Under the pieces are notes generated by a model. The model was not told the DNA's origin, searched no databases, and was given only the letters and a program-made list of their open reading frames with translations. From Patescibacteria group bacterium (lineage in GTDB: Bacteria; Patescibacteriota; Minisyncoccia; Phycocordibacterales; Phycocordibacteraceae): a DNA stretch of 64,000 nt. Every line of letters begins with the position of its first letter. Position 1 is the stretch's first letter. Of this stretch, positions 2,135 through 63,337 are shown in pieces. Both the position numbers and the translations under genes were made by a program. Where the stretch lies: positions 668,210 through 732,209 of the forward strand of contig JAZJYZ010000001.1 in the NCBI GenBank assembly GCA_040390125.1, read 5' to 3'.

Positions 2135-2980
2135 ATGAAGCGTTGGCTGATTTCAGTAAGTGTAGTAATACTCATCGCACTACTCTCAACACCTTTGCAG
2201 GTTGCCGCCGAAACAGCTTCCGCAGGGATTCCTGAGGGAAATATTTGGCTTTCGAAAAGGACTCTCACTGAAGGAGAATCGGTTCGCATATTTTTGCCTG
2301 TCTATAATGCGAGCGCAGTAAAGATTTCTGGCGATGCAGTCTTTTCTGTCGATGCGATACAAGTGGGTACTGCACATTTTGAACTTGACGTTGGAAACTC
2401 CACAATAGTATCGAGTCCGTGGATCACAACTAAAGGACCACACTCAATAACGGCACGACTTGAAGGTGCTGTTGACGCAAAAACGGGTACCGAAATCGCC
2501 GTATCAGCAAACACGGAAACACTTGCTGTTGATGTAACTGAACGACCACCTGCACCCGTATTAGTGCAAGCACTTGCGAGTGTTGCTGACGTTGCACAAA
2601 ACACTGCGGCCGCTCTGCTTCCTGTTGTCTCCTCAGTTGCTGGTGCAGTATTTGATCAAACTGAAGAAATAAGAAAAAGTGCAGTAGTTGCACTTGAAAA
2701 TTCGTTGAACGGAACAGATGCTTCATCCGATACAACCGCACCGCAGGGGTTAGTGTTAGGTGCTGAAACATATCGTGCACCTGATCTAGGAAATGGGCTC
2801 GTAGCTTCCGCAATTACTGCACCCGCATCAACAGGTTTCATGCGTATACTCCAGAGCATACTTCTCTTTCTTATAAGTTACGTATGGATATTTTATCCGC
2901 TCTTGATTTTGATTCTTCTTGCAATTTTATATGTCATAGGAAAAGGACTATCCCGCAAGAAAGCAGGGGCTAGGTTCTAG
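2135..2980 (+). CDS. Hypothetical secreted protein with C-terminal transmembrane anchor
   Basis: 281-aa ORF. Signal peptide MKRWLISVSVVILIALLSTPLQVAA. C-terminal hydrophobic helix ILLFLISYVWIFYPLLILILLAILYVI followed by a basic tail. Confidence 0.6.
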   Translation: MKRWLISVSVVILIALLSTPLQVAAETASAGIPEGNIWLSKRTLTEGESVRIFLPVYNASAVKISGDAVFSVDAIQVGTAHFELDVGNSTIVSSPWITTKGPHSITARLEGAVDAKTGTEIAVSANTETLAVDVTERPPAPVLVQALASVADVAQNTAAALLPVVSSVAGAVFDQTEEIRKSAVVALENSLNGTDASSDTTAPQGLVLGAETYRAPDLGNGLVASAITAPASTGFMRILQSILLFLISYVWIFYPLLILILLAILYVIGKGLSRKKAGARF

Positions 2981-3040
2981 CTTCTAGGTGCTAGTTTAAA
3001 TTTCTGAAAGCTAGAAGCTAACAGCTAGCACCTAGAACCT
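2969..3040. repeat. Heptamer-periodic ctag-type, roughly palindromic intergenic element between convergent genes
   Basis: Left arm aggttctag/cttctag/gtgctag, centre tttaaatttctgaaag, right arm ctagaag/ctaacag/ctagcac/ctagaacc (reverse-complement 7-mers). The same design recurs in more than 12 other intergenic gaps in this window. Confidence 0.8.
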
Positions 3041-3053
3041 TTCAAAAGGCTCC

Positions 3054-3869
3054 TCAGAGGAGCATCAATATCGCTACAGCAAGTAAAACCCGATACACCG
3101 CAAACACATACAAGGGGTGTGTGCGGAGGAACTGCAGGAGGAAGTGGATCGCAAGAAGACCGCTCACAAATGCAACAACACTCCCAAGAATGAGCGGAGT
3201 GCCAATGACAGTAAATGCTCCCGCTCCATTAAGTTCAAAAAATTTCTTTAGCCCCGCTCCAAGAATAATAGGCACAGAAAGTAAAAAGCCAAAGCGTGCA
3301 GATGCTTCTCGTGAAAGCCCCAAAAACAGCCCACCTGAAATTGTCATGCCGGAACGGCTCATCCCCGGAATGAGTGCAAGGGATTGAAAAAATCCTATAC
3401 AGAGACTTCTCCAAAAACCTACCGCCTCTACACCAAGAGAAGTTTCCTTACGTTTTGACACATACTCCGCTACAAGAAAGACAACTGAGCCTGCAATGAG
3501 TGCATAGGCTACAAGATGAGTATTTCGAAACAATGTGTCCATGGTCTTCTCCAAAAAAAGACCAAAAATAATGGCGGGTATTGTGCCCACAATAAGTGCA
3601 ATGAGGAGTCGTGAGCTTTCTGCTTCTACAGGTTTCCCCAGCACCCTTTTAAGTGCAGTGTGTGCCAGATTCAATAAATCCTTAAAAAAGTACACTACAA
3701 CGGCAAGAATAGTGCCGAACTGCAACACCGCATCGACAGCAAGGCCATTTGCAGTGTTTGCACCAAGAATCTCCCGTACCACAATGAGATGCCCAGAAGA
3801 AGAAATTGGAAGAAACTCCGTAATTCCTTGCACGAGTCCCAAAATGCTAAAAATAAGCCAATCTCCCAT
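3054..3869 (-). CDS. uppP: Undecaprenyl-diphosphatase (UppP/BacA)
   Basis: 271 aa, multi-TM. Motifs GITEFLPISSSGHL and PGMSRSGMTISGG are characteristic of BacA/UppP. Confidence 0.9.
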   Translation of the reverse strand: MGDWLIFSILGLVQGITEFLPISSSGHLIVVREILGANTANGLAVDAVLQFGTILAVVVYFFKDLLNLAHTALKRVLGKPVEAESSRLLIALIVGTIPAIIFGLFLEKTMDTLFRNTHLVAYALIAGSVVFLVAEYVSKRKETSLGVEAVGFWRSLCIGFFQSLALIPGMSRSGMTISGGLFLGLSREASARFGFLLSVPIILGAGLKKFFELNGAGAFTVIGTPLILGSVVAFVSGLLAIHFLLQFLRTHPLYVFAVYRVLLAVAILMLL

Positions 3870-4683: not shown

Positions 4684-4692
4684 CATTTAAGA

Positions 4693-4769
4693 AGGTGCTA
4701 GCTTCTAGGTTCTAGGTGCTAGCTTTAACTTCCGAAAGCTAGAACCTAGTACCTAGTCCCTAGTACCTC
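4693..4769. repeat. ctag-type heptamer-periodic palindromic element between convergent gene ends
   Basis: aggtgctagcttctaggttctaggtgctagc - tttaacttccgaaagc - tagaacctagtacctagtccctagtacctc. The arms are near-reverse-complements built from NNNctag 7-mers. Confidence 0.8.
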
Positions 4770-5594
4770 TTATAGTCTGAGTCGGTAGATGTCAAAAGAA
4801 TTCTCGCCTTCGAACATGTCTGAAGGGTTTGGAAGGTACATACGCTCCCTGAGTATTTCGGCACTCGCATCATTAATGAGTCGATGAAATACTTCGAAGT
4901 CTTCTTCACATTCCTTAAAATCCAATACGTAGCGACGCATCTGGGATGAGCCATCGGCATTCTTTCTCTTTTTGCACTCGTACACAATGAAACGCCTGAC
5001 TGGTTTACCAAAAAGAGCTCCGACGGTGTAGTAGTTAAACATCGCCTGCAGTACAAAAAGTGGTTTATTGGCACCACTCTTACTGAATGAATCAACAAAT
5101 TTGTGATCCACAATGTCGACCGCTCCTTTTTCAACACGAGATTCAACCACTAAGTCAGAAATCGCTTTCACCGGGAGCGGTAGTCCTGGAACTTCTGCCA
5201 TACCCATAACTTCAATCCCTAAGACTTTATGTTTTGGTGGACGCTCTAAATAGAAAGACACTGCTTGCAAGTAATCTTTCTCCATCGAAAGCCTTTTCTC
5301 TTTTTGTGCTCGCTTACTCTTTGCTTTACCAAACTGTACTTCAAAGTCCGGAACATTTCGTAGGTACTCCAGCCCTAATGCGATAGACGCTTCTTTTGAA
5401 AGTCCGCTATAAAAATGCTGAAGCGCCACGTGCCCAGAGCGTCCAATGATGCCTGCGGGCGTGGACGGCGTGTCTCGCACATTTTCAACATACCGCTTGT
5501 ACCACGCCAGAGGGTTCCTCAAGAAGGATATCAAGGAAGAATGGCTCCAGTGTTTTATGGGATACTTTGATTTCTTACTCGAAGCCTTTTTCAC
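4770..5594 (-). CDS. PD-(D/E)XK (RecB/Cas4-like) nuclease-fold protein, hypothetical
   Basis: 274 aa with a GTG start. N-terminal HWSHSSLISFLRNPLAWYKRY resembles the RecB-family nuclease N-motif. VDIVDHK resembles the hhDYK catalytic motif. Assignment rests on motifs only. Confidence 0.5.
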   Translation of the reverse strand: MKKASSKKSKYPIKHWSHSSLISFLRNPLAWYKRYVENVRDTPSTPAGIIGRSGHVALQHFYSGLSKEASIALGLEYLRNVPDFEVQFGKAKSKRAQKEKRLSMEKDYLQAVSFYLERPPKHKVLGIEVMGMAEVPGLPLPVKAISDLVVESRVEKGAVDIVDHKFVDSFSKSGANKPLFVLQAMFNYYTVGALFGKPVRRFIVYECKKRKNADGSSQMRRYVLDFKECEEDFEVFHRLINDASAEILRERMYLPNPSDMFEGENSFDIYRLRL

Positions 5595-6042: not shown

Positions 6043-7323
6043 TTAGTATGAGCGGAGTCTTTTGGCTTTGCCGTGAGTGCGGATTTTTTCAAGTGCTTTT
6101 GCTTCAATCTGACGAATACGCTCACGAGTAACACCAAACTCCTGCCCTACCTCTTCGAGTGTGTGGTAAATGCCATCTTCAAGCCCATGACGCATTGCCA
6201 AAATTTTTCTTTCTTTTGGTGTGAGATCGCCCAAGATTTCGTGAAGCTGTTCAACAAGAATGCGATGAGCTGTTTCTTGGTCAGGCGTTGGGAGTGAATG
6301 GTCTGCAACGAAGTCACCACGAGCTGAGGCATCGTCATCATCCGATGAGCTGATAGGTGCCTCCAAAGAGAGTGTCTCTTGGTTGATTTGTTCAATCTGG
6401 TAGACCTTCTCAACATCGACACCCATCTCTGCAGAAATTTCTTCGGGCATCGGATCACGACCGAGGTCTTGTTCGAGTCTTCGTACTATTTGCTTGTACT
6501 TGGCAATCGTCTCCACCATGTGCACCGGAATACGAATAGTGCGTGATTGGTCCGCAAGAGCACGAGTGATGGCTTGTCGAATCCACCACGTAGCGTACGT
6601 AGAAAACTTATATCCTTTAGTGTAATCAAATTTATCAACGGCCTTGAAGAGTCCTAAGTTCCCTTCCTGAATGAGGTCGAGGAGTGACAAGTCCGATGAA
6701 CGTGATGCATATTTCTTTGCAATGGAAACAACGAGGCGAAGGTTTGCTCTCGCAAGAAGATTCTTTGCTTCTTCATCTCCTTCGGTGATACGTTTTGCAA
6801 GAGCTCGCTCTTCAGGACCCGTGAGGAGTGGATACTGGCCGATCTCACGCAAATACATTTGAATAGAGTCGTGTGCCGAGCCCTCGCCCCTGTAGCCCCC
6901 ACGCATTACCACCTCATCAGGCACTTCTTCGAGCATTCCACCTGACTCCAAGACATCAACACCTGATGTTGAAAGTCGCTCGTAGAGCTCTTCAAGAAAG
7001 ACTACATTCTCTTCGATCGTTGGAAATTCCTTTAAAATTTCATTGTACGTAACATAGCCACGCTCCTTACCTTTACCAATCAGACGTGAAGCTTTTGTCT
7101 CAAGAAGAGCACGCTTCTTACCAGAGAGTGCTTTAGCGGGCTTAGGTGCCTTTACCTTTGCTACCTTCTTTGCTGGTGCTTTCCCTTTGCGGAGCGGGAC
7201 CTTCTTTGCAGGCTTACTCTTTTGCTTCCCTGCTGGACGCACGACCTTCTTCACCACCTTTTTGCGGGGAGACGCCTTAACTGGCTTTTTTACCTTTTTG
7301 GATGTTGTTTTTTTCTTTGCCAT
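6043..7323 (-). CDS. rpoD: RNA polymerase sigma-70 factor RpoD with Lys-rich N-terminal tail
   Basis: Regions 2-4 are conserved ([57 protein letters not shown]). The N-terminal ~75 residues are KKxK/AKK repeats instead of an acidic region 1.1. Confidence 0.95.
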
Positions 7324-7349: not shown

Positions 7350-9149
7350 TTAGTGGAGCTTCAAAGCAAGCACGCTGAGCTCCTGCATGAGCGTCTCAGT
7401 TTTCGAATCATCATGTGCCATTTCGGCGACCCGCAATGATGCAAGAACTTCACGATAGCGTTCATGCCGAGATTCTTTCAAAAGTGCATCATACACTTCC
7501 TCGACCGCACTCTGTCGAAGCGATTCATCTTCATGACGCTCCAGAAAGAAATCGGCTTCGAATAATGCGGCACTGGTGTCCGTCGGGGCTTCGAGCAATA
7601 ATCGCAAACGCTCTTCGGAAAGCGCCCCCTTGAGGGCATTCAAGGCTAACTCGGCACCCGACTCATCTTTCTTTTCCTTATAGAGAAGTAGGAGCCCGAA
7701 TACAAGACGCTCGAGCACATCACCTCGTGACAAGAAAGGCTGGGACTGCGTTAGTACTGAGTTCTGAGTACTGAGTACTGAGCTCGGACTCTGGACTCTC
7801 GACTCTGAACTCTGAACTTTTTTAAGTTCCGCAATCACCGCATCCTCTCCAACTTGAAGCACTTCTGCAACACGCTTAATGAAATGTGCCTGGTCTATTT
7901 TGTGAGGAATCATTGCGACGTACGGTAGAACGGTACGGGAAACTTCAAGGCGGAATGTTCGTGCGTCATACTTAGCATCCGCAATGTGTGCAAGGTAAAA
8001 ATCAACCACGTGAAGAGCTCCTTTGACCGCCACTCTAAATGATTCTTTGTTTTCGAGAAGCATGTCTGCAGGGTCCTTCTCTGGGGGGAGTTTTACTATT
8101 TTTACGTCGAGACCAATCTGTAGCGCTATGCCAGCGGCACGCCCTGCAGCCGAGATGCCTGCCCTATCACCGTCATAGGCTATGAGGAGGTTACCGGTGT
8201 AGCGTTTTATTATTTCTGCGTGTGGAAGTGTAAACGCAGTTCCTGAGGTTGCGAGTGCGTTCCGATACCCTGCTTGGTGAGCCATGAGTAAATCAAGCTG
8301 TCCTTCAACGAGAAGTGCCGCACCGAGCTCTCGAATACCGTCACGTGCACGGTCAAGACCATAGAGTGCACGTGATTTATCGAATACAGGAGTTTCCGGA
8401 GAATTCAGATACTTGGCTTGCGGGTGCTTTTCATCGTCTTCAAAAATGCGGCCCGAAAACCCAATAACTCTCCCTGAAATATCCTTAATGGGAAACATGA
8501 TGCGACCACGAAACCGATCGTACGTCCGTGCCAAAGGCACGGACGAGTTCTGAGTTCCTAGTTCTGAGTTCTGAGTTAACTCTGGACTCGGAACTCTAGA
8601 CTCTGAACTTTCCTGCTGTTTCACTAGTCCCGCACGCTCCAAAAGAGCATCATCAAAATTCTTTTCAAGCAAAAAGTCCCGGAGACTATGCCACGCATTC
8701 GACGCATACCCCAAAGACCATGAAGATATAGTTTCTTCTGTTAACCCTCGCTTCGTGAGGTAGGTAAAAGCGTCTGGCTTTTCTTTGAGGGTCGCAGAGA
8801 AAAAACCATTAGCTGTTTCAAGAACAGAATACAAACGTTCACGCAAATCACGCTCACCAGGTTTCTCATCTTCTAGAGGGACGCCTGCTTTTTCTGCCAG
8901 CATTTTTAAGGAACCGCGAAAATCCACTCCTTCCATCTCTTGTAGGAATGTAAACATATCGCCTCCTTTGCCTGAGGAAAAACAGTGATACAAACCTCGG
9001 TCAGGAGAAACAAAAAATGAAGGGGTCTTTTCTTTCGTGAATGGAGAAAGCCCCTTGTAGTACTTCCCCGCACGTGTGAGCTTCACGTACTGCTGTACCA
9101 CTTCAAGAATAGTGAGTCGTTCCTTAATTTTATTGACGGTGTCGCTCAT
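7350..9149 (-). CDS. dnaG: DNA primase DnaG
   Basis: CHC2 zinc finger [15 protein letters not shown] and TOPRIM region EGQLDLL / YDGDRAG. Contains two in-frame low-complexity insertions (listed as repeats below). Confidence 0.9.
7750..7815. repeat. gagt(a/t)ct / gactctg heptamer mini-element inserted in frame inside dnaG
   Basis: agtactgagttctgagtactgagtactgagctc-ggactctggactctcgactctgaactctgaact, translated on the minus strand as [23 protein letters not shown]. Confidence 0.75.
8545..8618. repeat. Second copy of the gagttct/gactctg mini-element inside dnaG
   Basis: gagttctgagttcctagttctgagttctgagttaactctggactcggaactctagactctgaact, translated as [23 protein letters not shown]. Confidence 0.75.
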
Positions 9150-9150
9150 A

Positions 9151-9191
9151 GATTAGCCACTAGCCATTAGAGTTTAGCCACTAGGGTTAGG
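9151..9191. repeat. tagccac/tagggtt heptamer element overlapping the 3' end of the HAD gene
   Basis: gattagccactagccattagagtttagccactagggttagg. It encodes the last residues (LTLVAKL) of the HAD protein and fills the dnaG-HAD gap. Confidence 0.7.
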
Positions 9192-9790
9192 ATATCTTCG
9201 AAATCCTGGAAACAATAGTCGGCGTCGGGTGAAGACTTCCACATGAGAGCAGTCTGAAGCCCAAGGCTTTTTGCAGGTTTGAGTTCTTTTTCGACGCTAT
9301 CCCCCACAAACAGTATATTCTCTGCTGGTAGGTTTGAGAGCTGAATCATTAAATGAAAGCCATCGAGTGCGGGTTTCGGATTCTTAACTTCTTGAGGGCC
9401 CAAGAGATGTGTGAACCATGCCGAATCTATTCCTAGAGCGGGAAAGAATTTGTCTGCTTGAACATTAGAAAAGATTGATATGGGAACAATTTCTCTGAGA
9501 CGCTGTAATACATCAGGAATGTTGGGGTTAGCGAGTTTTAAGAGGGATTCTGGATCTGCCGAAGCATACCGCTCCGACCAATACCCATCAGGTAATCCTA
9601 AAGAAGCAAAGATTGCCGAATGGCTTTTATGTTTCTCGAAAAGCGATTCGTATTCTTCAATCAACTCCGGCGTAACGGGCTTACCAACAACATCCGCATA
9701 CGAACCATAGCGCAATTTTGCATGTGCAGGCTTATCCAAGCGAACAATCGTCTCGCTAAAATCAAACCAGATGTGTTTAATGGAGCCCAT
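9167..9790 (-). CDS. HAD-superfamily hydrolase-like protein
   Basis: 207 aa. Motif I-like IWFDFSET and motif III-like FVGDSVEKE. Family assignment only. Confidence 0.6.
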   Translation of the reverse strand: MGSIKHIWFDFSETIVRLDKPAHAKLRYGSYADVVGKPVTPELIEEYESLFEKHKSHSAIFASLGLPDGYWSERYASADPESLLKLANPNIPDVLQRLREIVPISIFSNVQADKFFPALGIDSAWFTHLLGPQEVKNPKPALDGFHLMIQLSNLPAENILFVGDSVEKELKPAKSLGLQTALMWKSSPDADYCFQDFEDILTLVAKL

Positions 9791-9878
9791 AGAGATATAG
9801 AAGGTAGAGCGTAGAGCGTAGTCGGTAGTTAAGAGTAGAAAGACTAAGTCGTTTCTAATTTCTACTCTCTACCCACTA
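9791..9878. repeat. gtagagc / ctctac heptamer-periodic element between the HAD start and the rpoC end
   Basis: tagaaggtagagcgtagagcgtagtcggtagttaagagtag ... tttctaatttctactctctacccactac. Same 7-nt periodic, half-palindromic design as the other intergenic elements. Confidence 0.7.
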
Positions 9879-9887
9879 CATTCTTGC

Positions 9888-17558: not shown

Positions 17559-17664
17559 AGAAAAATAGTATATTCTTTAAAATTTCTTTTTCAAAGTTGC
17601 CGTTCGTCCCTCCTATTTCCTGCCTCGAGGACGAGGTATCGGAAATTCCTGTCTTCGCAGGATC

Positions 17665-17868
17665 GGAAGAAACGCAAAACTATTCCTGTTTCGTTCCTCC
17701 TAAAACCTGTCTCGCTTGCTCGACAACGGTTTTTGCCGCAAAACGGCACCGGAAGAAACGCAAAACTATTCCTGTTTCGTTCCTCCTAAAACCTGTCTCG
17801 CTTGCTCGACAACGGTTTTTGCCGCAAAACGGCACCGGAAGAAACGCAAAACTATTTGCGTTTCTTCC
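17665..17868. repeat. 86-bp tandem direct repeat, 2 full copies plus a partial third ending in a perfect hairpin
   Basis: Unit ggaagaaacgcaaaactattcctgtttcgttcctcctaaaacctgtctcgcttgctcgacaacggtttttgccgcaaaacggcacc at 17665 and 17751. Third copy 17837-17868 is ggaagaaacgcaaa-acta-tttgcgtttcttcc (14-bp perfect stem). A degenerate copy precedes at about 17600-17664. Confidence 0.9.
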
Positions 17869-18616
17869 AAGCTTCAATCTTAGCGTGATTACCTGAAAGA
17901 AGAACTTTCGGAACCTTGTGATTCTTCCCCGCCCATTTAAAAATCTCCGGTCTGGTATAGACCTCCGAGCTAGAAATTCTCTCTTCTTCCACGGACTCAA
18001 ATTTTCCCAAAACACCAGGAATCTGGCGAGCAACAGCATCAATCACGACCATGGCTGGCAACTCCCCTCCAGTGAGAGTGTAAGAACCTACAGAAATTTT
18101 CTTCGCTTTCAATATCTTCTGAACCCGTGCATCAATACCCTCGTAATGCCCACATATCAGCACCACCTGCTTCTTAATGGCAGACATCGTATGTCTGCCA
18201 TTTTTACTCATCAATATTCTGGGTTTACGAAACCCAGAATATTGAGAATGAGCTAGGAGGCGGGCGTCTTTGTTTGTAAATTGCTTCCCCGATGCATCGA
18301 AAAAATAAATAACTGCCCCAGAACTCTGGACTCTGGACTTGGAACTCTGAACTTTTCTCAAAGCGGCTTCTACCGCTTTGAGAAACGGTTCTGCCTGAAG
18401 CACCATGCCAGGGCCACCTCCGTACGGGCGACCATCTACCTTTATGTAGGGCTTATCAGTTTTTTTAGTTACTTTTACAAAATCTCGTGGATTATAAAAT
18501 TTCACTTTAATGTGTTTATCCCGAATCGCTCGCCCAATGATGGAGGACGCAAGATATGAATCAAACGCCTCAGGAAAGAGCGTGACTACGTGAAAAGTCA
18601 GTGGCGTTTTTTTCAT
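17852..18616 (-). CDS. trmD: tRNA (guanine37-N1)-methyltransferase TrmD
   Basis: LTFHVVTLFPEAFDSYL and GGGPGMVL motifs. Contains an in-frame mini-element insertion (VQSSKSRVQSS). Its stop codon lies in the loop of the terminal repeat hairpin. Confidence 0.93.
   Translation of the reverse strand: MKKTPLTFHVVTLFPEAFDSYLASSIIGRAIRDKHIKVKFYNPRDFVKVTKKTDKPYIKVDGRPYGGGPGMVLQAEPFLKAVEAALRKVQSSKSRVQSSGAVIYFFDASGKQFTNKDARLLAHSQYSGFRKPRILMSKNGRHTMSAIKKQVVLICGHYEGIDARVQKILKAKKISVGSYTLTGGELPAMVVIDAVARQIPGVLGKFESVEEERISSSEVYTRPEIFKWAGKNHKVPKVLLSGNHAKIEAWKKRK
18310..18347. repeat. Half-copy (gaactct/gactctg type) of the dnaG mini-element inserted in frame in trmD
   Basis: cagaactctggactctggacttggaactctgaactttt, near-identical to the right arm of the dnaG insertions, translated as KVQSSKSRVQSSG. 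Confidence 0.7.
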
Positions 18617-19333: not shown

Positions 19334-19420
19334 AGCGGGATATTTATCTTTGTAAATCAGCCATTAATGACTGCTCAAAACAGTATCACGCAAAACTCTA
19401 AAGTGGTCAACAAGGCTCTC

Positions 19421-19621
19421 TTACTGGATGCCACCTGCCCGCTCGGTATGTACCCCCAAAAGATCTAGAATTTTTTGAAGCATCCGCCCACCATCGTTAT
19501 ACTTCCCCGCTTTATCAAAACGATAGAGTTGAATTTCGAGCCCAATTAATGAATCAGGCGGGTAACATCCATCAATATATTTTGAATAATCGGGACATGA
19601 GGGACCTGCATTTAAACGCAT
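19421..19621 (-). CDS. Hypothetical small ORF (66 aa), doubtful
   Basis: ORF-track only, no motif. Lies in a 630-bp region of low coding signal. Confidence 0.2.
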   Translation of the reverse strand: MRLNAGPSCPDYSKYIDGCYPPDSLIGLEIQLYRFDKAGKYNDGGRMLQKILDLLGVHTERAGGIQ

Positions 19622-22327: not shown

Positions 22328-22359
22328 CTAGTTCAGAGTTCTTAGTTCCTAGTCTTGAG
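22328..22359. repeat. Intergenic copy (left-arm type) of the gagttct mini-element between gnd and rpsP
   Basis: ctagttcagagttcttagttcctagtcttgagtt, the same 7-mers as the dnaG and trmD insertions. Confidence 0.7.
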
Positions 22360-22776
22360 TTATGCGGAAACTTCTTCTGAGGTAGTCTCTTCTGCAACCA
22401 CTTCTTCCGCAACAACCTCTGGTTCAGAAGCGACTTCGGCTGCCGGTTCACTTTTTGATCCCTTCGGATCCGACGAAGCGTCGCCTGCTTCACTTTTTAC
22501 TATCGGAGTCTTCTTTCCGAGCACATTCACCTTCTTACCCTCTATGACCTTATTCGTTATGAGGAGGTTATTGACGGTTCCTGAGAGCTGAGCGCCCATA
22601 GAAATCCAGTGCTTTACTCGTTCAGCGTTAATAACAGTGTGTTTGGTCTTTGGATTGTAGGAGCCGAGGACTTGGAGCGGGTGCCCAGCCTTAGGACTTC
22701 TCTGTTTCTCGAGAACGACTATACGAAATGCCGGATTATTCTTCCGTCCCGTGCGTTGAAATCTGATTGTAAGCAT
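22360..22776 (-). CDS. rpsP: 30S ribosomal protein S16 with acidic C-terminal extension
   Basis: MLTIRFQRTGRKNNPAFRIVVLEKQRSPK...LGSYNP is typical of S16. The C-terminal 45 aa is E/V/A-rich. Confidence 0.9.
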   Translation of the reverse strand: MLTIRFQRTGRKNNPAFRIVVLEKQRSPKAGHPLQVLGSYNPKTKHTVINAERVKHWISMGAQLSGTVNNLLITNKVIEGKKVNVLGKKTPIVKSEAGDASSDPKGSKSEPAAEVASEPEVVAEEVVAEETTSEEVSA

Positions 22777-31112: not shown

Positions 31113-31148
31113 GAATAGCTTTCAGCTTTCAGGTGTGAGCTTTCAGGG
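31113..31148. repeat. agctttcag-type heptamer element upstream of smc
   Basis: atagctttcagctttcaggtgtgagctttcaggg, built from the same 7-mers as the elements at 35118, 50175 and 63259. Confidence 0.6.
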
Positions 31149-33508: not shown

Positions 33509-33592
33509 AGTTAGAGAGTGGAAAGTGGAAGGTAGAAAGTAGAAACAAAATCTCAAGGTACAGAATAGCAAAAAATAACCTGCGTATGCAGG

Positions 33593-34518: not shown

Positions 34519-35117
34519 GAGACAATAGTATCATTGACGATTCTCGAAAGAAAACTCATCCGGTGGATGGGTGAAGGACCGTATTCTTTAATAGCCTGAA
34601 TGTGTGATGCAGTCCCATACCCTTTATGCTTCTCAAAACCATATTGAGGTTGTTCCCCTGCAATCTTTACCATCAAGCGATCACGAGTAACTTTCGCAAC
34701 GATTGAAGCGAGCATAATGGCAGGAATCAATCCATCGCCACCAATAACAGTCTCTTGTTCATATTCAAAAGGTGCCTTGAGAGAACCATCAAGATATATT
34801 TTCCCTTCTCTGGGGTTAGGCATAAGTTTTCGCACGCCCTGCTCGAGCGCATGTGAAATAGCGTACGAGATTCCTTTTGTATCTATCACGTTTGAGCTCG
34901 ACAAGCACACGACTGCACGCACGCTTCCAACTTTCATTTCTTCTTGAAGACGCAGAAACAATAATTCACGTTTTTTCTCTGAAAGTTTTTTAGAATCGTT
35001 GAGCCCTGGAAATGCAGTGAGTAAATCAAAACCACTCTCTATCGCAACTACCCCCACGGCAACGGGTCCTGCCAAGGGTCCCCTGCCCGCTTCGTCAATT
35101 CCGAGAATGTAAGTCAT
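34515..35117 (-). CDS. rnhB: Ribonuclease HII
   Basis: ILGIDEAGRGPLAGPVAVGVV N-terminal catalytic motif. 200 aa. Confidence 0.92.
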   Translation of the reverse strand: MTYILGIDEAGRGPLAGPVAVGVVAIESGFDLLTAFPGLNDSKKLSEKKRELLFLRLQEEMKVGSVRAVVCLSSSNVIDTKGISYAISHALEQGVRKLMPNPREGKIYLDGSLKAPFEYEQETVIGGDGLIPAIMLASIVAKVTRDRLMVKIAGEQPQYGFEKHKGYGTASHIQAIKEYGPSPIHRMSFLSRIVNDTIVS

Positions 35118-35220
35118 AGCTTCTAGCTTTCAGCCTATAGCTTATAGGGAGGAAAGAAAGGTTTTTTGGGATATTGGATGTGTAAAGCTGGAAGCTGACA
35201 GCTGGAAGCTGTAAGCTACT
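35118..35220. repeat. Composite agcttctag / agctggaag heptamer element filling the divergent rnhB-dnaE gap
   Basis: agcttctagctttcagcctatagcttataggg ... aaagctggaagctgacagctggaagctgtaagctact. The central AT-rich 35 nt (ttttttgggatattggatgtgt) probably carries the divergent promoters. Confidence 0.7.
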
Positions 35221-38200: not shown

Positions 38201-38317
38201 TACAAAACGAACGCCAGCGTGATAACTGAAGGAACCTGCGTTCTCTTCAAGGGCAAGCTTTCAAAACGAAATGGCGAACCATCGATTTTGATTGAGAAAG
38301 TCAAAGAGCTCAAGTAG
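35225..38317 (+). CDS. dnaE: DNA polymerase III alpha subunit, compact 1030-aa form
   Basis: PHP domain HLSAHSHYSLLDG. Polymerase core (palm/fingers) recognisable. Shorter than the ~1160-aa E. coli DnaE. Confidence 0.9.
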   Translation: MSSFSHLSAHSHYSLLDGIVQIDALVNTAMFYGMPALALTDRNNLYGAIEFYKACKKAGIKPILGIDADIAIADTEDHIIFLAETNEGYQHLLKLISHAYLDLSKETGGNALPKVTAEHIQKYGKGLIALIPDTALVRRNSEALVEVLRQGLGKESVYARLGWNGGRDQQLRIAGIAKALELNLVASDDTYYLKPEDRQARDIVRRIAVPGVPADPSDLAFCSVETATERYRDFPEALANVEAIANRTDVTLNLGSWVFPHFPLPKGASYETELKNAIEKGLTERKMEATSEVRERIDYELSIISTKGFAPYFLTVADLLAYARNHGILTTTRGSAAGSLVSYLTGITNVDPMAYRLPFERFLNPERPSAPDIDMDFADNRRDEMIQYAKEKYGEECVAQIGTFGTMMARAAVRDVARALGYPYGVGDRIAKLIPMGSQGFPMTIKKALEIEDELKKLYQSDEDAEIIIDTAKQIEGNARHISIHAAGIVIAPTAVSDFVPVQFEPSGSAIITQYDMHEVEDAGLLKFDFLGLTNLSILGDSVERVIARKGERVDIENIPLDDKKTFAMLARGETGGVFQLGGSGMTHYLKSLKPSSIHDINAMVALYRPGPMESIPEYIERKHNPALVTYLDPRMKDILDRSYGIITYQDDVLLIAITLAGYSWLEADQLRKAMGKKIPAEMEAQKEKFIQGCLEHGKLQKTKAESLWKLIEPFAAYGFNKGHAASYGKVAYQTAYMKANHTEDYMAALLSADSGNVERIADDVAECERIGIRVLPPDINESFESFTVIAGGMIRFGLSTIKNFGEGASKAVIEERYRGGKFTSIGDVLSRLPGSILNRRALESLIKCGVFDAFNNRGILLGNIEKLLLFAKDAGATSAGQDSLFGAMPATTNIALNPAPALSQIEMLNSEKELLGVYVSGHPLDQFKVELAKYPHSIKFARAEERNGYPLVVCGVIESIKTILTKKGDKMAFITITDKDGFIETVAFPEVYKTNASVITEGTCVLFKGKLSKRNGEPSILIEKVKELK

Positions 38318-38392
38318 GTTATAGGTTTTAGGGGATAGGTTTTAGTTTTCCCGATTTTAAACTAGCACCTATAACCTAGTCCCTAGAACCTG
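38318..38392. repeat. taggtt/aacctag heptamer palindromic element between dnaE and thrS
   Basis: gttataggttttaggggataggttttag - ttttcccgattttaaac - tagcacctataacctagtccctagaacc. Confidence 0.75.
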
Positions 38393-50174: not shown

Positions 50175-50218
50175 CTAAAAAGCTGAAAGCTAACAGCTGA
50201 AACCTGAAAGCTAAAAAG
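50175..50218. repeat. agctgaa-type heptamer element abutting the gyrB stop
   Basis: ctaaaaagctgaaagctaacagctgaaacctgaaagctaaaaag. Confidence 0.7.
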
Positions 50219-56503: not shown

Positions 56504-56860
56504 TTATTTGTGAAGATATTTACGATAACCACCGATTAATGCTCCGAGATTCTTCAGCTTTTCCTTCAGAGATTCATATTTGGCTGTATCAATAAAGGAT
56601 AACTCAAAAGAGACAGCGAGAAGACTTTCTACTTCATTAAGAGAGCCGAGTGCCATATCAATGAAACGGCTATTATCTTTCTTTGATCCACGTCCTGCCC
56701 CTTCTGCAATATTTGAAGATATAGAAATAACGGCACGCCTTAATTGAGAAGTAAGTCCGAACATTTCTTCTTTTGGAAATTTACCCGTAAGAGAATATAT
56801 CTCAGTGGCAAGTACTACCGCTTCTTGCCAAATTTTTAGGTTTTCGTAAGTTTTTGCCAT
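56504..56860 (-). CDS. Four-helix-bundle protein (23S rRNA intervening-sequence protein family) inserted between pheS and pheT
   Basis: 118 aa. MAKTYENLKIWQEAVVLATEIYSLTGKFPKEEMFGLTSQLRRAVISISSNIAEG matches the conserved N-terminal pattern of this family. Confidence 0.75.
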   Translation of the reverse strand: MAKTYENLKIWQEAVVLATEIYSLTGKFPKEEMFGLTSQLRRAVISISSNIAEGAGRGSKKDNSRFIDMALGSLNEVESLLAVSFELSFIDTAKYESLKEKLKNLGALIGGYRKYLHK

Positions 56861-57689: not shown

Positions 57690-57756
57690 ACAATTTAAAA
57701 AGCAAAAAGAGCTGTATAGCATAATATGACGGTCGTCATATTATACTATACAGCTC
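57690..57756 (-). terminator. Intrinsic terminator of the PEGA-GT2 transcript (long hairpin then a U-run on the minus strand)
   Basis: gagctgtatagcataatatgac-ggtc-gtcatattatactatacagctc has ~22-bp arms with one mismatch. The plus-strand A-run 57690-57708 gives the U-tract. A second perfect 16-bp hairpin ggtacacgtggggcta-cctctagg-tagccccacgtgtacc lies just upstream at 57778-57817. Confidence 0.65.
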
Positions 57757-57851
57757 TAAACCCCACTTCGGTACATCGGTACACGTGGGGCTACCTCTAG
57801 GTAGCCCCACGTGTACCGAATCGAGCACTCCAAGCGCTGTATTAGAAACCC

Positions 57852-61325: not shown

Positions 61326-61401
61326 TTTTTCTTATTGGAGCCGCCTCCCAGATTCGAACTGGGGACCTTCACTTTACAAAAGTGTTGCTCTACCAACTGA
61401 G
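61326..61401 (-). tRNA. tRNA-Thr (anticodon UGU)
   Basis: GCCGCCTTAGCTCAGTTGGTAGAGCAACACTTTTGTAAAGTGAAGGTCCCCAGTTCGAATCTGGGAGGCGGCTCCA. 7-bp acceptor stem, D-loop AGTTGGTA, anticodon loop TTTGTAA, T-loop TTCGAAT, CCA encoded. D-arm identical to E. coli tRNA-Thr. Confidence 0.85.
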
Positions 61402-61422
61402 CTAAGGCGGCAATGGTATGTA

Positions 61423-63258: not shown

Positions 63259-63337
63259 AAAAGCTGTCAGGTGCCAGCTGTCAGCTTTTAGCTTTTAAAT
63301 TCAAAGCTAGAACCTGGAAGCTGAAAGCTAGAAGCTT
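63259..63337. repeat. agctgtcag / agctggaag heptamer palindromic element between the release factor and rpsB
   Basis: aaaagctgtcaggtgccagctgtcagcttttagc - ttttaaattcaa - agctagaacctggaagctgaaagctagaagctttc. Confidence 0.75.

Follow-up and report, generated by a model that had tools for sequence, protein, structure and literature searches.

What kind of element are the two palindromic repeats that lie in frame inside the DNA primase gene dnaG of a Patescibacteria genome, and how do they come to be translated there? The question is raised by a 64-kb stretch of contig JAZJYZ010000001.1 (assembly GCA_040390125.1), which we call the window and which covers about 8.5% of the 749-kb contig. An earlier note on this stretch described the two repeats and likened them to the mobile Rickettsia palindromic elements (RPEs). 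Both repeats are present, the frame is unbroken and the quoted peptides are encoded, as seen from the open reading frame (ORF), from Tandem Repeats Finder (TRF) and from hairpin folds. The host is a Patescibacteria genome, so the description of an essential gene in a reduced-genome bacterium resembling the candidate phyla radiation (CPR) also stands. The phenomenon is statistically solid and more general than that note saw. On balance we lean towards the view that heptanucleotide-repeat palindromes form a dispersed family with exchange among its copies, and that the two dnaG segments are members which lie in frame and are passively translated.

Two heptamer hairpins in the primase gene

Each dnaG element is 66-72 nucleotides (nt) long and consists of about 4.5 heptamers followed by about 4.5 complementary heptamers. 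TRF reports period-7 arrays at 8545-8577 (GAGTTCT) and 8578-8609 (AACTCTG) in site 1, and at 7753-7782 (AGTACTG) and 7786-7818 (GGACTCT) in site 2, with 4.3-4.7 copies per array. Because the second array is close to the reverse complement of the first, each element forms an imperfect hairpin of about 30 bp with roughly one mismatch per unit. The two sites are identical at 54 of 68 bases over their full length. Their period-7 self-match is 0.51 and 0.68, to be compared with a mean of 0.234 and a maximum of 0.36 in 957 control windows elsewhere in dnaG genes, and the core motif has six matches in the window versus 0.00 expected. The claim that the segments are built from only two heptamers goes too far: they are heptamer arrays, but the units themselves vary, with GAGTTCC, TAGTTCT and CGGAACT among the variants. 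A separate GC-rich hairpin occupies 8523-8545. On the coding strand the units are AGTTCAG and AACTCAG, which is the common AACCTAG type with two bases swapped. The antisense (plus) strand of the elements has stop codons in all three frames, and the sense strand is open only in the frame that is used.

Site 1 folds on the plus strand with -41.7 kcal/mol and a z-score of -5.9 versus shuffled sequences; the minus strand gives z = -3.4. Site 2 reaches z = -4.0 on the coding strand, but only -1.4 to -2.9 with alternative boundaries. The plus strand folds equally well or slightly better whatever the direction of the gene, which makes the comparison uninformative on a role as RNA. A role of the dnaG hairpins as intrinsic terminators was rejected because the sense strand has no U-run: no T-run follows either hairpin on the coding strand, and the sole T-run nearby (7817-7822) lies on the antisense strand and matches conserved Lys-Lys codons. 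The elements match no family of Rfam 15. At the gathering threshold the sole match in the window is a tRNA (61339-61411), and the permissive mode gives just sub-threshold matches to eukaryotic miRNA-precursor hairpins. An assembly artefact was also rejected, since identical or homologous inserts turn up again in assemblies made independently of one another (NCBI, ENA, JGI and Logan).

The dnaG product is 100% identical to the NCBI protein P0001 of a Patescibacteria metagenome-assembled genome (MAG). The neighbouring genes are those of rpoD, a HAD hydrolase, rpoC and rpoB, and dnaG directly upstream of rpoD is the classical macromolecular-synthesis operon arrangement. The sigma-70 factor encoded at 6043-7323 has a Lys-rich N-terminal extension of about 90 residues. 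In a phmmer comparison with solved primases, the Staphylococcus aureus primase (PDB entry 4e2k) aligns to residues 122-182 and 209-377 of the window protein, and the alignment is broken at site 1. Since 4e2k has just two residues between the matched stretches, site 1 accounts for about 26 extra amino acids (aa) in the window DnaG. The AlphaFold model, built on 29 orthologues, has a mean predicted local distance difference test score (pLDDT) of 81.9 and falls below 50 at residues 181-205 and 447-473 only, that is, at the two inserts. It places site 1 between two β strands in the N-terminal subdomain of the polymerase domain, and site 2 in the linker from the last helix of the polymerase domain to the first helix of the C-terminal domain. 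Judged from the model, both inserts are likely a disordered loop or linker, and the earlier expectation that they fall into surface loops or linkers is borne out.

The GC-rich hairpin is a second, different element within the site-1 insertion, and its stem is perfect. All 10 pairs are kept in the window and in three related loci, L081, L082 and L085 (labels of this kind denote loci of other genomes compared with the window), and at three of the pairs both bases have changed in a compensatory way. In L098 its place is taken by another GC hairpin, of 6 bp. The hairpin was rejected as a dispersed repetitive extragenic palindromic (REP) sequence: it is single-copy in the window, and elsewhere it is found only at the same dnaG site (L081, L082), with no copy in unrelated loci. 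Other palindromic insertions are of a similar kind. A perfect palindrome with a 16-bp stem and a 3-nt loop (18211-18245) lies within a second in-frame insertion of trmD, which is about 23 aa long and not in the L083 TrmD; no other copy of it occurs in the window. A third dnaG insertion site, between the SGRIF and AKYLNSP motifs, is occupied in L081 (2211-2285) and L095 (1517-1591) by perfect 7-10-bp stems with 3-nt loops and without heptamer periodicity. Many in-frame insertions of this clade are thus short inverted duplications that are close to perfect, a known product of fold-back template switching (quasipalindrome mutagenesis). The palindromes at the third site suggest that insertion by fold-back duplication has happened repeatedly in the clade. 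Two adjacent near-perfect palindromes are also seen upstream of pheS, at 57708-57757 and 57776-57819, the first with 24-nt arms that are 96% identical and the second with 21-nt arms that are 100% identical.

Distribution in the window and in related genomes

Period-7 regions number 16-17 in the window, and periods 5, 6 and 8-12 give 0-1. A more sensitive listing has 26 arrays at about 18 loci, and the principal ones are collected in Table 1. The density is 0.25 arrays per kb in the window, about 0.14 in related genomes and about 0.03 in distant loci (1.2 Mb). Intergenic DNA matches itself at 0.316 at lag 7 and 0.305 at lag 14, over a baseline of about 0.267, and coding DNA is without such a signal. 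By tally, seven loci are hairpins or paired arms and about nine are single arrays. Five are long intergenic hairpins of two inverted arrays, and the remaining loci are mostly single arrays that abut start or stop codons. Within convincing genes, arrays occur in dnaG (twice) and in trmD only. The intergenic units (AGGTGCT/AAGCTAG, AAAGCTG, GTAGAGC and others) each hold CTAG, CTGA or CTAA. Because every unit holds a stop in this way, the hairpins at 2960-3045 and 4688-4776 have stop codons in all six frames. No transposase or RAYT (REP-associated tyrosine transposase) domain was found among the approximately 40 ORFs of the window that were scanned. Between pheS and pheT, on the minus strand (56504-56860), lies a gene for a four-helix-bundle protein of the 23S-rRNA-intervening-sequence type (bAvd-like).

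The further copies claimed earlier in trmD and between genes were both recovered, the former as a half copy and the latter as a single arm. The trmD copy is identical to the left arm of dnaG site 2 at 31 of 34 bases (91%), including the irregular units, and both are read in the same frame and orientation. The trmD genes of L083, whose TrmD is 83% identical at the protein level, and of L096 represent the empty site, and the window represents the filled site. In this comparison a 30-nt insertion stands between AAAAG and GGG, with no target-site duplication. Directly downstream of the trmD stop codon (17664-17856) there is an 86-bp unit in 2.2 copies at 100% identity, possibly a recent duplication or an assembly artefact. 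The ribosomal protein S16 gene next to the intergenic arm (22360-22776, 138 aa) encodes a long C-terminal extension.

Table 1. Heptamer arrays, hairpins and their host gene in the 64-kb window
Feature	Position	Strand	Context and properties
dnaG (DNA primase), host of both elements	7350..9149	minus	599-aa ORF; Zn_ribbon_DnaG, DNAG_N and Toprim domains; PDB primase matches
Site-1 heptamer hairpin	8546..8612	minus	coding strand: AGTTCAG-type units, TTAA turn, AACTCAG-type units; about residues 180-201; evidence from TRF period 7, folds, pLDDT
Site-2 heptamer hairpin	7750..7821	minus	interdomain linker; about residues 444-467; evidence from TRF, folds, pLDDT
GC-rich hairpin, 10 bp, 3-nt loop: CGTCCGTGCC-TTT-GGCACGGACG	8523..8545	minus	directly 3' of site-1 heptamer hairpin; about residues 202-209 (SSVPLART)
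Left-arm half copy, read in frame within trmD as KVQSSKSRVQSS	18316..18354	minus	30-nt insertion relative to L083 and L096 trmD
Single-arm AGTTCAG-type array	22329..22354	plus	spacer in which 6PGD and rpsP converge; an intrinsic terminator directly precedes it
Intergenic heptamer hairpin, CTAG-type units	2964..3041		converging ends of a hypothetical gene and bacA; -32.7 kcal/mol, z = -5.6
Intergenic heptamer hairpin, CTAG-type units	4692..4772		converging dsbA-like and PD-(D/E)XK nuclease genes; -45.6 kcal/mol, z = -7.6
Intergenic heptamer hairpin, GTAG/CTAC-type units	9795..9879		rpoC stop to HAD hydrolase start
Short heptamer array, TAGCCAC-type	9154..9188		HAD-dnaG spacer; enters 3' end of HAD gene (9167..9790)
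Two heptamer arrays, AGCTTNN and its complement AAGCTGN, separated by about 40 nt	35116..35218		diverging rnhB and dnaE; -36.3 kcal/mol, z = -3.8
Intergenic heptamer hairpin, CAGCTGT and AAGCTAG units	63262..63337		z = -5.2
Single intergenic array, AAAGCTG x5	50179..50216		directly after gyrB stop codon
Single intergenic array, CAGCTTT	31116..31146		directly upstream of smc start codon
Single intergenic array, CACTAAA	31874..31907		directly after RNase III (rnc) stop codon
Single array, TAGAAAG/TGGAAAG	33512..33548		at or upstream of nusB-NUDIX gene start
Single intergenic array, CCTGAAA	33959..33989		
Single array, TAGGTTA	38315..38345		at dnaE stop codon

Orthologous DNA was obtained by exact-protein look-ups and one metagenome scan, which gave 15 dnaG genes at 61-81% protein identity, or 16 with the window. 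Heptamer-periodic sequence, mostly able to form a hairpin, is present at both dnaG sites in most of these 16 genes, down to about 61% protein identity. Period 7 is the best-scoring period in 14 of 16 site-1 and 8 of 16 site-2 instances, with a self-match of about 0.40-0.68. Across 120 homologues, most of the distant ones have a site-1 loop of 8-16 aa, and a scattered set that takes in all of the 18 closest relatives has one of 20-43 aa. The earlier view of the segments as lineage-specific indels does not survive this result: because the same kind of element occupies both sites in most orthologues, to about 61% identity, the dnaG inserts are old or recurrent and persist at their sites, and are not a recent lineage-specific invasion. 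Nor is there a single fixed element sequence, since the unit differs between genomes. The AGTTCAG family is found in dnaG of the window, L081, L082 and L098 and at site 2 of L085. Site 1 of L085 has GAAGGTG/CTTCAAG units, both sites of L087 have CAGTGCC/GGCACTG, and the dnaG units are GGCAGAT in L083, CCCTAAA in L088 and L090, and GAAGAGG in L097. The composition of the insert peptide varies likewise, from Ser/Gln-rich in the window to Glu/Lys-, Pro/Lys- or Gly/Glu-rich elsewhere. The L088 unit CCCTAAA is identical to the plant-type telomere repeat and occurs in that locus at 3440-3477, 8534-8569 and 19395-19423, in intergenic spacers and in dnaG site 1.

More distant orthologues have no inserts. 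In 44 distant DnaG genes (among the matches listed) the median site-1 loop is 10 aa. Two clearly expanded, strongly heptamer-periodic loops stand out among these 44, (GAACTCC)x5 from a MAG of the Verrucomicrobiia (L029:10578-10629) and (GAACAAN)x4 from one of the Yanofskybacteria (L012). Both are in frame in the site-1 loop and their unit resembles AACTCAG of the window.

Orthologous spacers behave like the dnaG sites. Those between the PD-(D/E)XK and dsbA genes, between bacA and the hypothetical gene, and between rpoC and the next gene hold heptamer hairpins whose unit family differs by genome. In one spacer, L094 (6479-6563) has a full heptamer hairpin, while in L083 (14229-14304) a canonical intrinsic terminator replaces the left arm and the right arm remains. 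The rpoC-HAD spacers of L083 (9216-9373), L084 (6262-6419) and L086 (8708-8865) contain a conserved element of about 158 nt with a long-range stem where others have a heptamer hairpin; this element has no Rfam match.

Copy relationships and competing explanations

Close relatives differ sharply at the two sites. The dnaG genes of L083 and L088 are 92-98% identical outside the sites, but 42% at site 1 and 58% at site 2. L088 and L090 are 100% identical at site 1 and 48% at site 2, and L089 and L090 show the reverse (87% at site 2, 49% at site 1). More distant pairs can be nearly identical. Between the window and L081, the identity of nucleotides, third codon positions and amino acids is 0.66, 0.40 and 0.70 in the flanks and 0.98, 1.00 and 0.95 in the heptamer part of site 1 (22 codons), which has P = 4e-11 given the flank divergence. 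For L082 the corresponding values are 0.68, 0.42 and 0.73 in the flanks and 0.86, 0.86 and 0.68 in the site-1 heptamer part; for L085 they are 0.66, 0.36 and 0.74 in the flanks and 0.74, 0.65 and 0.58 at site 2. L081 and L082 share 0.86 of third positions in the element and 0.35 in the flanks. The rise in identity starts and stops at the borders of the element. Substitutions in homologous elements are spread evenly over codon positions, which means that conservation or renewal acts on the nucleic acid and not on the peptide.

The similarities also cross from one site to another. Site 2 of L098 is nearest to site 1 of the window (0.83) and of L081 (0.81), compared with 0.60-0.73 for other site-2 elements and 0.73 for its own site 1. 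The sharing of 5-mers between site 1 and site 2 is 0.266 within genomes and 0.191 between genomes (permutation p = 0.0004), and control coding segments have a within-genome excess of only 0.007. The longest common substrings with the same genome are 12-16 nt, a modest rise over a background of 8-14 nt, which includes one 17-nt match in a close relative as an exception. Elements also shrink and decay. L083 and L094 differ by 21 nt, read as three right-arm units lost in L094, and periodicity and folding are lost at site 1 of L089 (z = -0.4) and of L086.

These observations are what we would expect if the dnaG segments belong to a dispersed, copy-exchanging family. An element in this account is a run of about four to five seven-base units followed by a run of complementary units, and such elements, their frames closed by stops, fill many intergenic spacers of this Paceibacteria clade. 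The AGTTCAG/AACTCAG subfamily is free of stops on one strand and in one frame, and persists in that orientation in two low-confidence parts of the primase and in a TrmD loop. Growth and shrinkage would occur by replication slippage, and in coding DNA only changes that keep the frame would survive, such as 21 nt, or three units. The inverted arm and the repaired complementarity may come from fold-back template switching. The pattern of similarities shows copies that have been written over, or seeded, from other ones, and templated copying or gene conversion would be the mechanism. Translation would be passive, giving poorly conserved, likely disordered and presumably neutral peptides, and a dedicated transposase would be unnecessary. 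The data fit a picture in which coding copies survive only in the stop-free orientation and in loops that tolerate varied sequence.

Several observations weigh against this account. Site 1 of the window and L081 has one difference in 66 nt despite saturated synonymous sites in the flanks, which is unexpected for a neutral passenger; either the two lineages, whose DNA has diverged by about 34%, exchanged the element recently, or the nucleic acid is under real constraint. Sharing of 6-mers, tested globally for genome-specific unit families, is 0.094 within and 0.085 between genomes and not significant (p = 0.31). GAAC-containing heptamers stand in the same loop of Verrucomicrobiia and Yanofskybacteria, where local origin fits at least as well as import. 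The copying mechanism is deduced from pattern; junctions of donor and acceptor are seen at the trmD site alone. The survey covers the 64-kb window, and the copies counted are those of this part of the contig.

The main rival is that the hairpins are a functional cis-element, selected as RNA or DNA structure in dnaG, with the peptide as a by-product. We regard this as unlikely but credible, and keep it because a neutral passenger fails to explain 98% identity at site 1 amid saturated synonymous sites. Nucleotide conservation that far exceeds synonymous sites, is independent of codons and has sharp borders speaks for it, as does the hairpin architecture, which is kept at both sites even after the sequence has been replaced. 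The adjoining GC hairpin, with its 10 of 10 pairs and three compensatory double changes, points the same way; compensatory changes in perfect palindromes can, however, arise without selection, by templated quasipalindrome correction. The hairpins might be sites of RNase III cleavage or of pausing, which would set the low level of primase against that of rpoD downstream, or they might offer a platform to a factor recognising motifs at 7-nt spacing. RNase III is encoded in the genome (31908..32630), dnaG lies directly upstream of rpoD, and L083 has a canonical terminator at the position of one hairpin arm. Set against an indispensable role are the decayed or truncated periodicity and hairpins of L089 site 1, L086 site 1 and L094, the absence of inserts from more distant orthologues, and the about equal folding of both strands, by which no transcript strand is favoured. 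The lack of an Rfam match also counts against it.

A bolder and decidedly doubtful proposal is that heptamer hairpins form an active, sequence-recognised class of Patescibacteria elements, written, overwritten or read by a trans-acting system. Candidates for such a system might be a factor that binds motifs spaced by 7 nt, similar to HutP, or an enzyme of templated copying. HutP binds UAG-N4 repeats. If true, this would explain how a specific sequence reappears at other sites and in lineages with synonymous saturation, why the two dnaG sites co-vary within a genome, and why spacers keep their architecture while units swap. It would also explain the fixed-position dnaG copies in most orthologues of a deep clade (decayed in some lineages and missing from more distant orthologues), which would fit a regulatory element of the dnaG-rpoD operon that acts as nucleic acid. 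Two further ideas are that the unit core CTA/CTG may correspond to trinucleotides at which primase initiates, and that the UAG-N4 spacing may be that of the HutP site.

Purely local microsatellites, in which a local 7-mer slips and is duplicated by fold-back, with no exchange and with similar units by convergence, are an improbable explanation. The structure is indeed that of a heptamer simple-sequence repeat (SSR). PMC4679880 and PMC4692102, citing Mrazek 2007, describe heptamers as the most abundant long SSRs in many bacteria and ascribe their excess to polymerase slippage. The 21-nt step between L083 and L094 fits, as do the independent loop expansions in Verrucomicrobiia and Yanofskybacteria, the other 42 distant DnaG (among the matches listed) having mostly about 10 aa. 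The absence of terminal inverted repeats, target-site duplication and transposase in the window is also in its favour. It does not account for a trmD insertion that is 91% identical to the left arm of dnaG site 2 down to the irregular units, for a site 2 in L098 that is nearer to site-1 elements of other genomes, for close relatives that have identical cassettes at one of the sites but unrelated ones at the second, or for a site 1 that is 98% identical across lineages in which synonymous change is saturated.

Very improbable is a classical non-autonomous transposable element, of the MITE (miniature inverted-repeat transposable element), REP/RAYT or RPE type, which would invade dnaG repeatedly with an enzyme encoded elsewhere. 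Dispersed copies, the filled and empty trmD site, cassette replacement and similarities that depart from the gene tree would all be expected of it. In-frame palindromic repeats in genes are a hallmark of RPEs (PMC10969869, PMC3184786), and the GC hairpin starts with CGTC, the tag of one REP superfamily (PMC3733652). This hairpin is single-copy in the window, however, and the heptamer arrays show no terminal inverted repeats distinct from their units and no target duplication at trmD. The scanned ORFs hold no transposase or RAYT, the unit sequence is highly variable within one genome, and many copies are halves or lone arms. That one and the same pair of dnaG positions is filled across a deep clade would not be expected of random transposition. 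The RPE-like mobile element that was proposed earlier is supported in two respects: nucleic-acid elements whose similarities ignore site and gene orthology, and a filled and an empty trmD site. A fixed consensus, terminal repeats, target duplication and, within the window, a transposase were not found. The earlier note had named in advance two outcomes that speak against mobility, namely comparable linkers of unrelated DNA in orthologues or no further copies, and the result is mixed: orthologues carry inserts, some of unrelated DNA, yet the window holds further copies.

That the Ser/Gln-rich peptides are adaptive linkers, selected as flexible spacers of the primase with incidental DNA periodicity, deserves hardly any credence: both inserts do lie in a low-confidence loop or linker of the AlphaFold model and some insert is kept at both positions in most of the clade, but peptide composition is not conserved among orthologues, the amino acid identity of homologous elements is reported at or below that of the flanks with third codon positions far more conserved, and the periodicity and self-complementarity of the DNA are left without a protein-level explanation.

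Relation to known repeats and wider meaning

In structure the elements resemble heptamer SSRs and the short tandemly repeated repetitive (STRR) sequences of cyanobacteria, and in their consequence for proteins they resemble RPEs. Bacterial heptanucleotide repeats have been on record since about 1990, and in 2007 they were shown to be over-represented (Mazel 1990 and Mrazek 2007 as cited in PMC4679880 and PMC4692102). Cyanobacterial STRR and the GGGAATC-type repeats of Xanthomonas and Nostoc include inverted pairs capable of forming stem-loops (PMC4692102). The present elements share with these repeats the tandem 7-nt units, the short arrays, the strong excess of period 7, the mostly intergenic location, the occurrence of inverted pairs and a large variation in length and sequence between close relatives. 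They differ in the high frequency of the inverted-pair hairpin and in the Patescibacteria host; here, too, elements lie in frame at fixed positions of essential genes clade-wide and are conserved at the nucleotide level in a coding context. None of the published STRR units CCCCAGT, TTGGTCA and CAACAGT matches the units found here (AGTTCAG/AACTCAG, AGGTGCT/AAGCTAG, AAAGCTG, GTAGAGC and others).

The closest parallel in orientation is given by the TAACTGA direct repeats of Beggiatoaceae, Cyanobacteria and Bacteroidetes (MacGregor 2015, PMC4679880). In one orientation they close three frames, they lie near gene starts and ends, and within ORFs they occur only in the stop-free orientation and at the protein periphery; mobility is suspected, by a mechanism that is not known (PMC4679880). 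The dnaG and trmD copies are likewise all in the stop-free orientation. There, one fixed unit forms direct arrays, whereas here many unit families form mostly inverted pairs. The TAACTGA cases within ORFs are mainly in hypothetical proteins, in contrast to primase and TrmD, where sites are occupied in orthologues. None of the 26 arrays of the window is a TAACTGA array, and a Bacteroidales locus (L035) has CTAACTG arrays.

The elements fail those defining features of RPEs, MITEs and REP/RAYT systems that could be tested. RPEs are 105-146 bp long and have a conserved family consensus and peptide (Ogata 2000, as reviewed in PMC10969869 and PMC3184786). Like RPEs, the elements are dispersed palindromes, both intergenic and in frame in unrelated housekeeping genes of a reduced genome, and the inserted peptides are compatible with the fold. 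Unlike RPEs, they are 66-72 nt long, are made of 7-nt units, have no conserved consensus or peptide and live in an unrelated host, and the dnaG insertions are old and site-persistent where RPE insertions are scattered and recent. The RPE analogy thus holds for the effect on proteins and fails for the nature of the elements. With REP sequences and REPINs (PMC3116915, PMC3333891, PMC3733652) they have in common that short imperfect palindromes lie in spacers, often between converging genes, and that orthologous spacers of related genomes hold different sequences. REPs are without heptamer periodicity and have a GTAG or CGTC tag and a RAYT partner; a high-copy tagged palindrome is not found here, and the CGTC-starting GC hairpin is single-copy in the window. 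MITEs are set apart in that the arms here are repeat arrays, with neither distinct terminal inverted repeats nor target-site duplication at trmD. A search of the full-text literature found no description of such elements in Patescibacteria.

Since dnaG is essential and many of its orthologues have been sequenced, synonymous sites in the flanks can serve as an internal neutral clock. Measured by it, the elements are in some cases kept far more strictly than neutrality would allow and in others exchanged as a whole, and which copies are alike follows neither the site nor the gene tree. What passed vaguely for a product of slippage thereby becomes a case in which exchange or selection acting on nucleic acid can be tested. 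Repeat DNA can thus sit, translated, in fixed low-confidence loops of proteins from ultra-small genomes. This bears on annotation, on phylogenies built from alignments of CPR marker genes and on the reading of lineage-specific inserts in CPR proteins as adaptations.

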